Positions 6,356 through 10,816 of a DNA stretch of 10,816 nt are shown piece after piece. The notes beneath the pieces are model-generated. The model was not told the DNA's origin and ran no database searches. It saw only the letters and a list, made by a program, of their open reading frames with translations. Position 1 is the stretch's first letter. Every line of letters begins with the position of its first letter. Origin of the DNA: a virus; UHGV virus genome UHGV-0110205. One strand, given 5' to 3'. The position numbers and the translations under genes are program-made.

Positions 6356-6471
6356 AATAAGACCTCAACTCTTTTCCATCCGTCACGTAATTTACGGGTG
6401 ATTCGTTCAAGTAAAGATTCATTTAGTTGGAAGGCACCCATGCGAGCGCCTCCCGCGATTGCGTAAATCAT
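6340..6471 (-). CDS. cIII: CIII-like FtsH (HflB) inhibitor
   Basis: 43-aa ORF MIYAIAGGARMGAFQLNESLLERITRKLRDGWKRVEVLLCAMK. Core ESLLERITRKLRDGWKR matches the lambda CIII amphipathic helix. AAGGA 7 nt upstream of ATG 6471. Confidence 0.7.
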   Translation of the reverse strand: MIYAIAGGARMGAFQLNESLLERITRKLRDGWKRVEVLLCAMK

Positions 6472-6495: not shown

Positions 6496-7464
6496 TTAGT
6501 AGGTTATTTTTGTTGCGAATACTTCGCCTTTTACGATGGCTGTTATGATATTTTTAGCAACATCTTCTGATGCGCCAACCTTGATAAGGTCAGCAAGTAT
6601 TTTGTTATTTACTTCTTTCCGGTGAGCTTTATCCTTTGCTCTACGCTCTTCTTCTTCCTTGATTCTTTTTTCTTCTGCTATTCTGGCTTGCTCTTTTGCT
6701 TCAGCATCGCGACGGATTCGTTCAGCCTCCTCCTGTGCTTTTCTGCGTTCTGCTTCAATTGCTGCCTGCTTTTCTCTTTCAGCTCGTTCTGCTGCCTCTT
6801 TTGCTTCGCGCTGTGCTCGCTGCTCGGCTTCAATGCGTTCACGCTCTGCACGTTCCGCTGCGGCCTTAGCTTCTGCTTCTCGCCTTGCTGCTGCTTCAAT
6901 TTCGTCTTTTGCCTTTGCTTCGGCTTCTGCTCTGGCTTTCTCTTCAGCTTCTCTTTTTAAGCGTTCTTCATGCTCTCGCTTTTCCTGCTCCGCTTTGAGT
7001 CTTGCCTCTTCTCTTTGGCGGTCAAATTCGCGATCCATCAAAATAGCTATTTCATGGTCAGACTCAATTTGCTTTGCGAGAGCTTCAGCTGCTGCCTTAG
7101 CTTCTTCTTCGGCTTTAATCCGCGCCTGTTCTTCCTCATAATCAGTAAGAGGCTGGCGTGCCTTGGCTTTCAGCTCATCAAGGCGATCACGCACTGTCTT
7201 GCGGTTGGCATCAATTAGCTTTGGAATTTCCTTCAGTTCAGCCACAAGGTCTTTGCCAAGACCATCGAGATATGTTTTCGTCTGCGCAACTTTATACGCC
7301 AGAGAAGCGATCTCCTTTCTGCCCTTTGCCGTTGTGATATCAGGCACAAAGGACATAACTTCACGTTCAACCTTTTGAAGGATTTCTTCAATCTGGTCGG
7401 CAGACTGAAATACAGTCATTGCATTTGATTTTTCAATAACAACTAAATCTGTTACTTCACTCAT
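6496..7464 (-). CDS. 322-aa protein with long E/R/A/K-rich predicted alpha-helical (coiled-coil or single-helix) central domain; function unknown
   Basis: GGAGGA 3-4 nt upstream of ATG 7464. Globular N-terminus (~110 aa), ~170-aa low-complexity charged segment (EEARLKAEQEKREHEERLKREAEEKARAEAEAKAK...), short C-terminal domain. Coding strand fixed by operon context. Confidence 0.85.
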   Translation of the reverse strand: MSEVTDLVVIEKSNAMTVFQSADQIEEILQKVEREVMSFVPDITTAKGRKEIASLAYKVAQTKTYLDGLGKDLVAELKEIPKLIDANRKTVRDRLDELKAKARQPLTDYEEEQARIKAEEEAKAAAEALAKQIESDHEIAILMDREFDRQREEARLKAEQEKREHEERLKREAEEKARAEAEAKAKDEIEAAARREAEAKAAAERAERERIEAEQRAQREAKEAAERAEREKQAAIEAERRKAQEEAERIRRDAEAKEQARIAEEKRIKEEEERRAKDKAHRKEVNNKILADLIKVGASEDVAKNIITAIVKGEVFATKITY

Positions 7465-7639: not shown

Positions 7640-7891
7640 TCAGGCAGCCTTGTTGTAAATGTTGCAGGTATCAAGTAAGTAATTAGATGGAGCGCCATAA
7701 ATTATGAACTCATCGTTTGTCGGGTCCATCTCCATCTCTTGGCCTATTGCCATTCTTGCGTCAGTGTCATCAGCGGCGAAGCATAAAACAGCCCACGCCC
7801 ACATTGTTTTAAAAAGAACTGCAATTGGCTGTGGTTTTACTGAATTTGCGTTAGCGCGAAAATCACAAATCGCACTTTCATGAAATTCCAT
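7640..7891 (-). CDS. Hypothetical protein, 83 aa, immediately downstream of N (position of ral in lambda)
   Basis: GAGGTG 4 nt upstream of ATG 7891; begins 9 nt after N stop. C-terminus ...YNKAA faintly recalls lambda Ral (...NNKAA), but the rest does not obviously match. Confidence 0.55.
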   Translation of the reverse strand: MEFHESAICDFRANANSVKPQPIAVLFKTMWAWAVLCFAADDTDARMAIGQEMEMDPTNDEFIIYGAPSNYLLDTCNIYNKAA

Positions 7892-7899
7892 ATCTCACC

Positions 7900-8232
7900 T
7901 CAATCGTAATAAGCTGGAATTGATTTTCCGCGTTGCTTCTGGCGGCCTGAACAAGTCACACCAATTTCACTGCGTGGCTTGCTGTACCATGTGCGCTGAT
8001 TCTTGCGCTCAATACGTTGCAGGTTGCTTTCAATCTGTTCGTGGTATTTAGCCAGCACCGTAAGGTCTATCGGATTCAGTGCGCTTTCTACTCGTGATTT
8101 CGGTTTGCGATTCAGCGAGAGAATAGGGCGGTTAACTGGTTTTGCGCTTACCCCAACCAACAGGGGATTTGCTGCTTTCCATTGAGCCTGTTTCTCTGAG
8201 CGACGTTCGCGGCGGCGTGCTTGTGCATCCAT
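7900..8232 (-). CDS. N: Antitermination protein N (lambda N family)
   Basis: 110-aa ORF MDAQARRRERRSEKQAQWKAANPLLVGVSAKPVNRPILSLNRKPKSRVESALNPIDLTVLA... is near-identical to recalled lambda N, including the Arg-rich boxB-binding motif. GGAGA 5 nt upstream of ATG 8232. Confidence 0.95.
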   Translation of the reverse strand: MDAQARRRERRSEKQAQWKAANPLLVGVSAKPVNRPILSLNRKPKSRVESALNPIDLTVLAKYHEQIESNLQRIERKNQRTWYSKPRSEIGVTCSGRQKQRGKSIPAYYD

Positions 8233-8233
8233 T

Positions 8234-8365
8234 TTATTCTCCTTTGAGCAACTTCATCGCTTCATCAATACGTGATTGTGTCCCTGCGTTTGACTCCACT
8301 TCTTGAATTCGGCGTGCGTCCTCAAGGAGTTTCGCAATCATTTCTTTAAGCGCTTCGTTATTCAT
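8234..8365 (-). CDS. Candidate small ORF (43 aa) in the nutL-N leader
   Basis: AGGAGA 7 nt upstream of ATG 8365; MNNEALKEMIAKLLEDARRIQEVESNAGTQSRIDEAMKLLKGE (helical, charged). Stop is 2 nt before the N start and overlaps the N SD. Could instead be non-coding leader. Confidence 0.35.
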   Translation of the reverse strand: MNNEALKEMIAKLLEDARRIQEVESNAGTQSRIDEAMKLLKGE

Positions 8366-8475
8366 GGTCATTCTCCTGTCAGTTAGCTTTGAGTAACGCG
8401 CCGTGATGCTTATCTCCACGGTTGCTGTCTTGCAGCTGCATTTCGCGCTACTCAAAGCCTTCTGCTTTGAATGCT

Positions 8476-8506
8476 GCCCTTCTTCAGGGCTTAATTTTTA
8501 AGAGCC
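8476..8506 (-). promoter_or_regulatory. nutL (boxA + boxB) N-utilisation site
   Basis: Minus strand reads GGCTCTTAAAAATTAAGCCCTGAAGAAGGGC. boxB GCCCTGAAGAAGGGC is identical to lambda nutL boxB; boxA GGCTCTTA is one mismatch from CGCTCTTA. Confidence 0.7.
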
Positions 8507-8545
8507 TCACCTTCATGGTGGTCAGCGCGTCCTGCTGATGGCTAA

Positions 8546-8574
8546 ATAGTACGATTTGTACTTTATCGAGTCAA
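8546..8574 (-). promoter_or_regulatory. PL early-left promoter (-35 TTGACT, 17-bp spacer, -10 TACTAT)
   Basis: Reverse complement of 8569-8574 is TTGACT and of 8546-8551 is TACTAT. Faces nutL and N. Spacer contains the palindrome AGTACgatttGTACT. Confidence 0.5.
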
Positions 8575-8620
8575 TACAAAATGTTCTAAATATAACTACT
8601 TTTTTATAACGCTTTGTATT
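8548..8620. promoter_or_regulatory. Candidate OL operator sites (15-bp AGTAC-N5-GTACT type)
   Basis: Perfect palindrome AGTACgatttGTACT at 8548-8562. Degenerate copies AATACaaaatGTTCT (8573-8587) and ATAACgctttGTATT (8606-8620), spaced 25 and 33 bp. Same motif class recurs at OR. Confidence 0.35.
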
Positions 8621-8635
8621 TAATGGGTTTATATT

Positions 8636-8669
8636 TTGGAAAAAGAAAACCCGACGCTAAGGTCGGGTT
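8636..8669 (-). terminator. Rho-independent terminator downstream of the repressor gene
   Basis: 8-bp stem aacccgac/gtcgggtt (8648-8655, 8662-8669), 6-nt loop; minus-strand U-tract uuucuuuuucc (revcomp of 8636-8647). 30 nt after the cI stop. Confidence 0.55.
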
Positions 8670-8699
8670 ATTGTTGTGTGTTTTAGAGTTGTGAGGCTG

Positions 8700-9359
8700 T
8701 TAACTAAATGTCTCTTCAGGCCACTGGCTGGCGATAACTTTCCCTACTACGGAACAGCTATCATTGCATGGAATCATTGGATATTGCGGGTTTAGTGGTT
8801 GTAGAAACACCTGACCGCTATCCCTGATTAGTTTCTTGAAGGTAAACTCATCACCTCCAAGTCTGGCTATGCAGAAATCACCTGGCTCAACAGCCTGCTC
8901 AGGGTCAACCAGAATTAACATTCCGTCAGGAAAGCTTGGCTTGTAGCCTGTTGGTGCGGTCATGGAATTACCTTCAACCTCAAGCCAGAATGCAGAATCA
9001 CTGGCTTTTTTGGTTGTGCTTACCCATTTCTCCGCATCGCCTTTGGTAAAGGTTCTAAGCTCAGGCGAGAACATCCCGGCCTGAACATGAGAAAAAACAG
9101 GGTACTCATATTGTTTTTTAACGGGGGCAGATGAGTATTCGCCAACAGGTGAAAATGTACCGTCGTGGTTGAATGAGACGTTATCAATACCAAGGTATTT
9201 AAACACCACACCAATCTCGTCAAGAGATGGATGACGAGATCCGCGCAACCAGTGACCAATTCCACCCTGCGTCATACCAAGCTCTTCAGCTAACTTCTCT
9301 TGAGTTATGCCGAGCTCTTTCATTCTGGATCTAGCCAGTTCATACCATTTCATTTTCAT
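8700..9359 (-). CDS. cI: Prophage repressor, CI-like (N-terminal HTH plus C-terminal LexA-type S24 autopeptidase domain); not lambda immunity
   Basis: From ATG 9359 ([37 protein letters not shown]...): XRE-type HTH; C-terminal domain with Ala-Gly (HVQAGMF), Ser (EGNSMTAP) and Lys (FTFKKL). Start could be 9353 or 9401. Divergent from cro. Confidence 0.9.
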
Positions 9360-10286: not shown

Positions 10287-10816
10287 TGATTACAGGCATA
10301 ACCCTGTACAACATCAGGAGGCATCCAGTATGGGGTATGTCTCTATACACCGCCAGTTTATGGACAGCAGGCTCTATAAGGACTCTCAGGCAGTACATCT
10401 TTGGCTTCACTTAATCCTCAAGGCTAATCACGAATCTACTGTCGTCAATACGGATATCGGTCCGATAACTGTTGATCGCGGTCAGATGATAACTGGACGC
10501 CCGTCGCTGGTCAGAGAAACATTCATCCCCGACAACAAAGTTCGGAGCTTATTACGGACTTTTGAGTCGAAAGGGATGCTTAATATTTGCTCGATGGGGA
10601 AGAAATTTAGCCTGTTTACAATCGTTAAATATGACGATTTTCAGGCAAAAAATTGTCCAACGGTTGTCCAACGGTTGTCCAACGCAAACACCAGTAATGG
10701 CGCGGCTCTCAGCGGAGATTGTCCAACGGTTGTCCAACGGTTGTCCATAAACAATAATATAAATAATATCTCTAATACTGACGTATTAGAGAGTGCCACA
10801 GCAGATAAAAAGTCTG
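10268..10816 (+). CDS. O-like replication initiator, N-terminal part (runs off window end); contains ori iterons
   Basis: Open frame from ATG 10268 (AGGAGG 6 nt upstream) to window end, 183 codons, no stop. Alternative start ATG 10331 also has an SD. Missing from ORF track because it has no stop. Confidence 0.8.
10654..10790 (+). repeat. Replication origin: six 11-bp direct iterons (TTGTCCAACGG) in two triplets plus AT-rich region
   Basis: Iterons at 10654, 10665, 10676, 10720, 10731 and 10742 (last degenerate TTGTCCATAAA), separated by a 33-bp spacer, followed by aaacaataatataaataatatctctaatact. Lambda-ori-like architecture inside the initiator gene. Confidence 0.7.

Follow-up and report, generated by a model that had tools for sequence, protein, structure and literature searches.

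We found that a 43-codon open reading frame (ORF) lying directly upstream of the antitermination gene N in a lambdoid prophage is, judged by the way it has evolved, a genuine protein-coding gene, and that it sits inside the translation-initiation region of N, where it separates the ribosome-binding site used for N in lambda from the start codon of N. The whole stretch of DNA that was analyzed (10,816 nucleotides of the virus genome UHGV-0110205; hereafter the window) corresponds to the early-left and immunity region of the prophage. Our explanation as a whole is that the ORF is an early-operon gene carried as a cassette at the N initiation region, and that its product most probably works in trans by binding a protein partner; we give this explanation a probability of roughly 60%. 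The placing of a small gene in the translation-initiation region of N was not found in any paper searched, and in databases the gene appears only as a hypothetical protein. The features needed for the argument are these:

9401–8700, minus strand: LexA/S24-type repressor, with a terminator at 8669–8648
8574–8546, minus strand: pL-like promoter, with a −35 element TTGACT (8574–8569), a 17-nt spacer, and a −10 element TACTAT ending at 8546
8506–8476, minus strand: nutL, with a boxA-like element GGCTCTTAA (8506–8498) and boxB GCCCTGAAGAAGGGC (8490–8476)
8459–8385, minus strand: large leader hairpin, GGCUUUGAGUAGCGCG...CGCGUUACUCAAAGCU, −35.5 kcal/mol
8377–8372, minus strand: Shine-Dalgarno (SD) sequence AGGAGA for the small ORF, in CTAACTGACAGGAGAAT, at the position of lambda N's own SD
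8369–8233, minus strand: segment without a counterpart in lambda or phi458; in alignments, 137 nt replace the 4-nt CCAG of lambda (net gain, 133 nt)
8365–8234, minus strand: small gene, 43 aa, matching PHROG 32391 and equal to WP_001701111.1 apart from P25S
8293–8291, minus strand: codon 25 of the small ORF, TCA (Ser), which is CCA (Pro) in all other close copies
8242–8238, minus strand: second SD, GGAGA, serving N, inside the last two sense codons (GGA GAA) of the small ORF and 6 nt before the N ATG
8232–7900, minus strand: antitermination protein N, lambda type, 110 aa (phrog_271), with the arginine-rich motif MDAQARRRERRSEKQAQWKAAN

The small ORF starts at an ATG (8365–8363), stops at a TAA (8236–8234), and encodes MNNEALKEMIAKLLEDARRIQEVESNAGTQSRIDEAMKLLKGE. 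An earlier note on this DNA had proposed a 43-aa ORF at this place with an AGGAGA SD at ideal spacing; the ORF is present at those coordinates on the minus strand, and the GGAG core of its SD is separated from the ATG by 7 nt. An alternative in-frame ATG at 8371, two codons upstream, abuts the SD and is unlikely to be the start; PGAP also selects 8365.

The small gene follows a leader of lambda type. A promoter scan of positions 7850–8750 returned pL as the sole σ70-like site, and by homology with the lambda pL +1 site (ATCAGCAGGACGC) the transcript would start at about 8539. The boxB of the window is identical to that of lambda nutL, and its N is 91% identical to lambda N; the presence of boxA and boxB past pL, together with an N that has an arginine-rich motif, identifies a lambda-type N–nutL antitermination module. 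The scan of 7850–8750 yielded only pL, the cI terminator, and the boxB stem, with no terminator between nutL and N, and no Rfam family was matched anywhere in the window. The leader as a whole folds with a z score of −4.1 relative to shuffled sequences. The N leader of lambda is a long-studied regulatory RNA with a hairpin that is cleaved by RNase III. The large hairpin of the window lies where lambda has its structured leader hairpin, which we take to be the RNase III-sensitive one; the interiors of the two hairpins differ, and the flanks (GGCTTTG...CAAAGCT) are the same. Phage phi458 has exactly the leader of the window, including the hairpin, without the small ORF. Among the relatives, at least five hairpin/nutL modules have been interchanged, so that the position of the hairpin appears to be conserved while its sequence is swapped.

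Comparison of the junctions locates the small ORF precisely. In lambda, phi458, Dewey, Bas106, and the ORF-less E. coli prophage STEC711, the junction reads CTAACTGACAGGAGAAT-CCAG-ATGGATGCA; in the window, it reads CTAACTGACAGGAGAAT-GACC-(ORF)...GGAGAATAA-A-ATGGATGCA. The 137-nt segment is made up of the spacer (GACC), the 43 codons of the ORF, the stop codon, and a single A, and it ends in a second GGAGAAT. The AGGAGA at the position of the lambda N SD serves the small ORF, and N uses the second SD. The earlier note had placed the ORF in the interval equivalent to the untranslated leader of lambda, which proved to be inaccurate: that interval is still present and untranslated, and the ORF is an additional net 133 nt. 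When a 371-nt leader/N query was used, ORF-less E. coli leaders matched as two pieces (238–239 nt), and the best matches showed a clean absence of 133 nt. About 860 complete E. coli genomes matched this query, and the small ORF was present in 6 of 5,426. Similarly, the ORF-bearing junction was found on 6 IMG/VR contigs, against at least 120 contigs with the lambda junction, and none of 50,697 deposited phage genomes had the ORF within the N leader.

The small gene also occurs beside an N of a different type. In four related loci (L022, L026, L044, and L045), the small gene (86–88% protein identity) comes 44 nt after a 933W-type N, and the gene that follows it is a different one. The region upstream of these copies reads CTAACCGACAGGAGCAT-GACC-ATG and is identical at 15 of 17 positions to the ribosome-binding region of lambda N, a score reached by approximately 1% of shuffled sequences. 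Recombination could have used this shared ribosome-binding patch as its left crossover point. To the right, homology between the two arrangements (before a lambda-type N and after a 933W-type N) stops directly after the stop codon. As the spacers differ (AAA versus CCAG), neither the ORF-bearing nor the ORF-less leader is a simple derivative of the other. The copies upstream of N have diverged to a dS of about 0.5 and sit behind at least five different nutL/hairpin leader types, which suggests that the arrangement is old and has been spread by recombination through its conserved flanks.

The evidence that the ORF is a gene comes from its conservation as protein. It matches PHROG 32391 with an hmmscan E value of 1.1e-32, residues 1–43 aligning with positions 1–43 of the 43-position profile, and its first ~40 residues are matched by PHROGs 30817, 12693, and 2982, which comprise longer proteins. 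The RefSeq hypothetical protein WP_001701111.1 is the same ORF, annotated by PGAP in three different E. coli prophages. The earlier note had asked for frameshifts or stops to be sought in close relatives and for substitutions to be examined codon by codon. All copies were intact in the approximately 20 related loci that were fetched (L009–L011, L014, L020–L022, L026, L037–L045, and cluster members), and most changes were synonymous. Between the window and L014, there are 10 synonymous and 5 nonsynonymous differences over 26 and 91 sites, respectively (dS 0.53, dN/dS 0.11); dN/dS was 0.16 against L020 and 0.07 against L022, with dS values of 0.53–0.64 across these three comparisons, and it ranged from 0.05 to 0.17 among the window, L009, L014, L020, and L022 (dS ~0.5). 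The protein is also 51–72% identical to the products of genes from Pectobacterium, Serratia, Aeromonas, Cronobacter, and Stx phages. Synonymous sites are saturated over these distances, which indicates that conservation acts at the level of the protein and not of the DNA or RNA. The ORF has only 43 codons and no function in the databases, and the copy in the window is substituted at a conserved proline, as might be expected of a chance ORF or of a noncoding RNA element that is open by accident. Set against the low dN/dS, the conservation across genera at saturated dS, the full-length profile match, a confident predicted fold, and the lack of excess RNA structure in the region, this interpretation is effectively refuted. 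The suggestions that the ORF is a real gene and that it might encode an independent small protein are, conversely, strongly supported by purifying selection and by the occurrence of the same protein where N is not directly downstream.

The substituted proline is Pro25, which lies in an EPNAGT loop and is at least 90% conserved in three alignments (A1–A3). The exact Pro25 protein was found on 247 contigs in a large collection, whereas the Ser25 form was found on one ENA contig, which is evidently the window. Ser25 could represent a mutation with a mildly damaging effect or a variant introduced by assembly, and the copy in the window is possibly impaired.

The protein belongs to a family defined by a module of ~38 residues, L-K-x-I-A-x-L-L-E-D-A-x-R-x-Q-x-x-E-P-N-A-G-T-x-x-R-I-x-x-A. 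A profile search found 385 family proteins; when 1.84 billion representatives were searched exhaustively, the family amounted to 113 clusters at 50% identity. Family members are 39–220 aa in length, save for three weak matches to proteins of 630–780 aa; no member has a name or a Pfam domain. The module occurs alone (42–48 aa) or with highly variable extensions, in which case it can be N-terminal, C-terminal, or internal, and common forms of 118–133 aa are included among the family members of E. coli and Stx phages. The invariant core residues (I10, A11, L13, L14, E15, D16, A17, T29, R32, I33, and A36) are all present in the window, and the near-invariant Pro25 is the Ser described above. AlphaFold2, run with an alignment of 48 sequences, predicted a two-helix hairpin (helices 3–23 and 27–41, with the EPN loop between them; mean pLDDT 94.3, pTM 0.70). 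The peptide is helical, charged, and nonrepetitive, as the earlier note had described it. From its sequence and this model, the protein is expected to be soluble and mildly acidic and to have no membrane segment.

Searches for a functional homolog gave negative results. Scans of the 43-aa protein against Pfam, NCBIfam, and PADLOC gave no match below an E value of 0.01; DUF5806 (E 0.067) and Striatin (E 0.002–0.004, with a 29-bit cutoff), which appeared when the 43-aa protein and its longer relatives were scanned, were rejected as sub-threshold noise. The best matches in a profile search of PDB sequences, LemA and a HAMP-domain protein (E 0.22), were not significant. The resemblance to LemA is only local (AGTExRI), and we know of no function for LemA itself. 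Foldseek found nothing below an E value of 0.001 in the PDB or BFVD, and the BFVD matches, including the top one, were family members only. No fused domain was found in the longest family members (up to 220 aa). YdaG and YdaF of Rac and YdfB and YdfC of Qin, which had been guessed to be K-12 homologs from their size and position, were discarded because their translations are dissimilar. Literature searches by motif, by accession, and for small ORFs upstream of N returned nothing relevant, and no described function, structure, or publication was found for PHROGs 32391, 30817, 12693, and 2982 or for WP_001701111.1.

We took a census of 86 loci that contain the module. At 63 of these it follows a DUF1391 gene (ydfA/ydaF-like) and precedes dicB/kilR, in early operons of the Rac/Qin type; 7 lie upstream of a lambda-type N, 2 lie downstream of a 933W-type N, and 11 have other neighbors. 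Further members are found as the first gene past a DicA-type repressor (phiES15 and pAEv1818) and in Pectobacterium phages, and one 77%-identical member is in a P2-like element. The common denominator of the family is a promoter-proximal place in an early operon, and not N. In E. coli, the module most often takes the form of a 133-aa protein encoded between the DUF1391 gene and dicB/kilR (L016–L018, L023, and most of L052–L107), which is present on hundreds of contigs and is entirely unannotated; in the Qin and Rac prophages of K-12, unrelated small genes (ydfB/ydfC and ydaG, respectively) occupy its position.

At its 3′ end the small ORF abuts N, as the earlier note had stated: the N ATG begins 1 nt past the stop codon (...AAA GGA GAA TAA A ATG). 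The further claim that the stop overlaps the N SD needs to be amended, as the SD lies within the Gly-Glu codons and the stop lies in the spacer before the N ATG. The distance from stop to ATG is 1–3 nt in every lineage in which the ORF is upstream of N. Copies that precede N end in AAAGGAGAATAA or AAAGGGGAATAG (KGE*; AAA GGA GAA TAA or AAA GGG GAA TAG), and these endings (AGGAGA or GGGGA) place an SD 6–9 nt before the N ATG, whereas copies with no N after them end in AAAGCAGAATAA (KAE*; AAA GCA GAA TAA, giving AGCAGA), which contains no SD. The presence of KGE before N and of KAE elsewhere fits selection on the last codons of the small gene to serve N. A natural variant found on 4 contigs (P0225) ends in KVE (GGA to GTA), a change that would weaken the SD serving N, and so the SD in the end of the ORF is not universally kept.

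This arrangement makes it structurally plausible that translation of N is coupled to that of the small ORF. We found nothing to support a coupling that is enforced by RNA structure, and N has a strong SD of its own that could make its translation independent. The RNA across the ORF-to-N junction has a folding z score of +1.5, 186 of 200 shuffled sequences folding at least as well, and no covariation was detected at the junction. In the minimum-energy fold, a stem forms between CUCCUUGAG (codons 13–15) and CUCAAAGGAG (the N SD); we dropped this stem as evidence for coupling because most shuffled sequences fold better than the region does and no compensatory changes were seen in it.

If coupling were the whole purpose of the ORF, it would be a cis-acting regulatory upstream ORF (uORF), in which translation, and not the product, sets the amount of N, for example by relaying the nutL-dependent, RNase III-modulated repression of N. 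The position of the ORF, on the ribosome-binding site that lambda uses for N and right after the conserved leader hairpin, is what such a role would predict, as are the invariably short distance to the N ATG and the restriction of the embedded SD to copies that N follows. Moreover, lambda N represses its own translation from nutL, ~200 nt upstream (PMC5725501). The peptide of such a leader or uORF would not be expected to be conserved outside its regulatory context, whereas the amino acid sequence of this one is under strong purifying selection and persists where no N comes after it: beside the 933W-type N, in Rac/Qin-type operons, in the P2-like element, and in phages of Pectobacterium, Serratia, and Aeromonas. 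There is also no RNA structure that ties translation of the ORF to exposure of the N SD. Conservation of the peptide in contexts unrelated to N makes a purely cis-acting uORF unlikely.

A product that acts on N itself, either as a chaperone or stabilizer of this basic, disordered, short-lived protein or as a modulator of the antitermination complex, would explain why members of the closest subfamily (at least 77% identity) nearly always flank N, and do so with two unrelated types of N and on either side of the gene; the small protein is mildly acidic and N is very basic, which would suit such a pairing. However, any promoter-proximal gene of the pL operon would likewise adjoin N, and one of the 77%-identical members is the one in the P2-like element. 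Furthermore, 63 of the 86 census loci are in operons without a detectable N, and the rarity of the ORF among E. coli genomes, set against the number that match the leader and N, implies that N works without the small protein. The closest subfamily might serve as a dedicated partner of N; as the role of the small gene, we regard this as quite improbable. The interval between cI and N commonly hosts accessory genes in the relatives (L014, L009, L026, and L011), which raises the alternative of a moron-type gene that is expressed in the lysogen and specifies superinfection exclusion or defense. The small ORF lies beyond the repressed pL, not before it, and lacks its own promoter and terminator, which makes a lysogen-expressed moron unlikely, and its product is soluble and acidic, lacks a membrane segment, and has no PADLOC match; taken together, these properties leave this alternative with very little probability.

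The presence of the same gene with another type of N and in operons that lack N argues that its product is most probably an early protein that is independent and acts in trans; the connection of the gene with the translation of N most likely follows from its location. In the explanation that we favor, the small gene is the first cistron of the pL transcript, past nutL and the large hairpin. It should be silent in the lysogen and would be made at once upon infection or induction, before or together with N, and its expression would not depend on N antitermination. Its translation would start from the ribosome-binding site that corresponds to that of lambda N, and N would be translated from the duplicate SD, probably both by direct initiation at the embedded SD and by termination and reinitiation 1 nt upstream. 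The repression that N exerts from nutL should now strike the ribosome-binding site of the small gene and would reach N only to the extent that the two cistrons are coupled. The protein would bind a protein partner early in the lytic program, and might thereby contribute to host takeover, anti-defense, or the control of protein stability. Action in trans is suggested by a mildly acidic protein with a conserved surface and variable tails. As no functional homolog was found by sequence or fold, the proposed action is a guess from size, charge, fold, and position.

A more far-reaching idea, which we put forward tentatively and consider rather doubtful in its entirety, is that the module represents a new class of immediate-early effector, a hairpin of ~38 residues acting on a conserved host protein, that it has here taken over the ribosome-binding site at which lambda-type N exerts its self-repression, and that N autoregulation from nutL and its modulation by RNase III are then relayed to N only through coupling. 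If this were true, the window would contain a natural two-cistron version of the classic N autoregulation circuit. The arrangement offers a ready-made test of whether autoregulation by N is confined to the first cistron or is transmitted further through coupling. The module is highly conserved, widespread in the prophages of Enterobacterales, and uncharacterized, and its place near the promoter of early operons makes it plausible as a candidate factor directed at the host early in infection. Should both ideas fail, what is left is another small hypothetical gene of a phage, oddly placed.

The arrangement can be compared with several known systems. The window shares with the lambda pL region the order and sequences of pL, boxA, the identical boxB, the hairpin flanks, CTAACTGACAGGAGAAT, and N. 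In lambda and most relatives, however, GGAGAAT leads through CCAG directly to the N ATG, whereas the window has a whole extra cistron in between, with the N SD duplicated inside it. In many bacterial and phage operons, translationally coupled cistrons have a stop and a start within a few nucleotides of each other and a downstream SD within the upstream gene. The sequence GGA GAA TAA A ATG, with the N SD in the last two codons of the upstream gene, conforms to this pattern; the differences are that no enforcing RNA structure is predicted and that the N SD is strong enough for independent initiation. Morons are autonomous genes inserted in phage genomes with a promoter and terminator of their own. 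The small gene resembles them in being a single extra gene that is sporadic among otherwise syntenic mosaic relatives, but it is without its own promoter or terminator, is situated in a translation-initiation region, and depends on pL. Lambda cIII and gp4 of the Pseudomonas phage LUZ24 are small helical early proteins that bind proteins of the host, and the small protein resembles them in size (~45 aa), helical character, and predicted early expression, a likeness that is analogy only. LUZ24 gp4 was the top Foldseek match in the PDB but was not significant (E 3.4, probability 0.28) and has no sequence similarity, and the window has a separate cIII of its own at 6471–6340.

Other features of the region were recorded in passing. 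Leftward of N, the window encodes an 83-aa protein, a 322-aa charged protein, cIII, kil, erf, ssb, abc2, and int. The 83-aa gene (7640–7891, minus strand; phrog_2471), which lies past N here, directly follows the small gene in prophages with a 933W-type N (L022, at 476–727, and L044), and this adjacency marks a mosaic joint that is common to two otherwise different early-left regions. The gene for the 322-aa protein (6496–7464, minus strand; phrog_1376 and phrog_21365) sits between the 83-aa gene and cIII; its product is very rich in E, A, K, and R and is predicted to form a long coiled coil. The accessory genes between the repressor and pL in L009, L011, L014, and L026 encode a P63C-domain protein, an SDH Clp-fold protease, a BstA-like protein, and a HigB toxin pair, respectively; the window has no accessory gene there, the terminator and pL following the repressor directly. 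Right of cII there are two groups, spaced 66 nt apart, of three tandem 11-nt repeats each (TTGTCCAACGG; 10652–10692 and 10718–10758), which look like iterons or another repeated protein-binding array.
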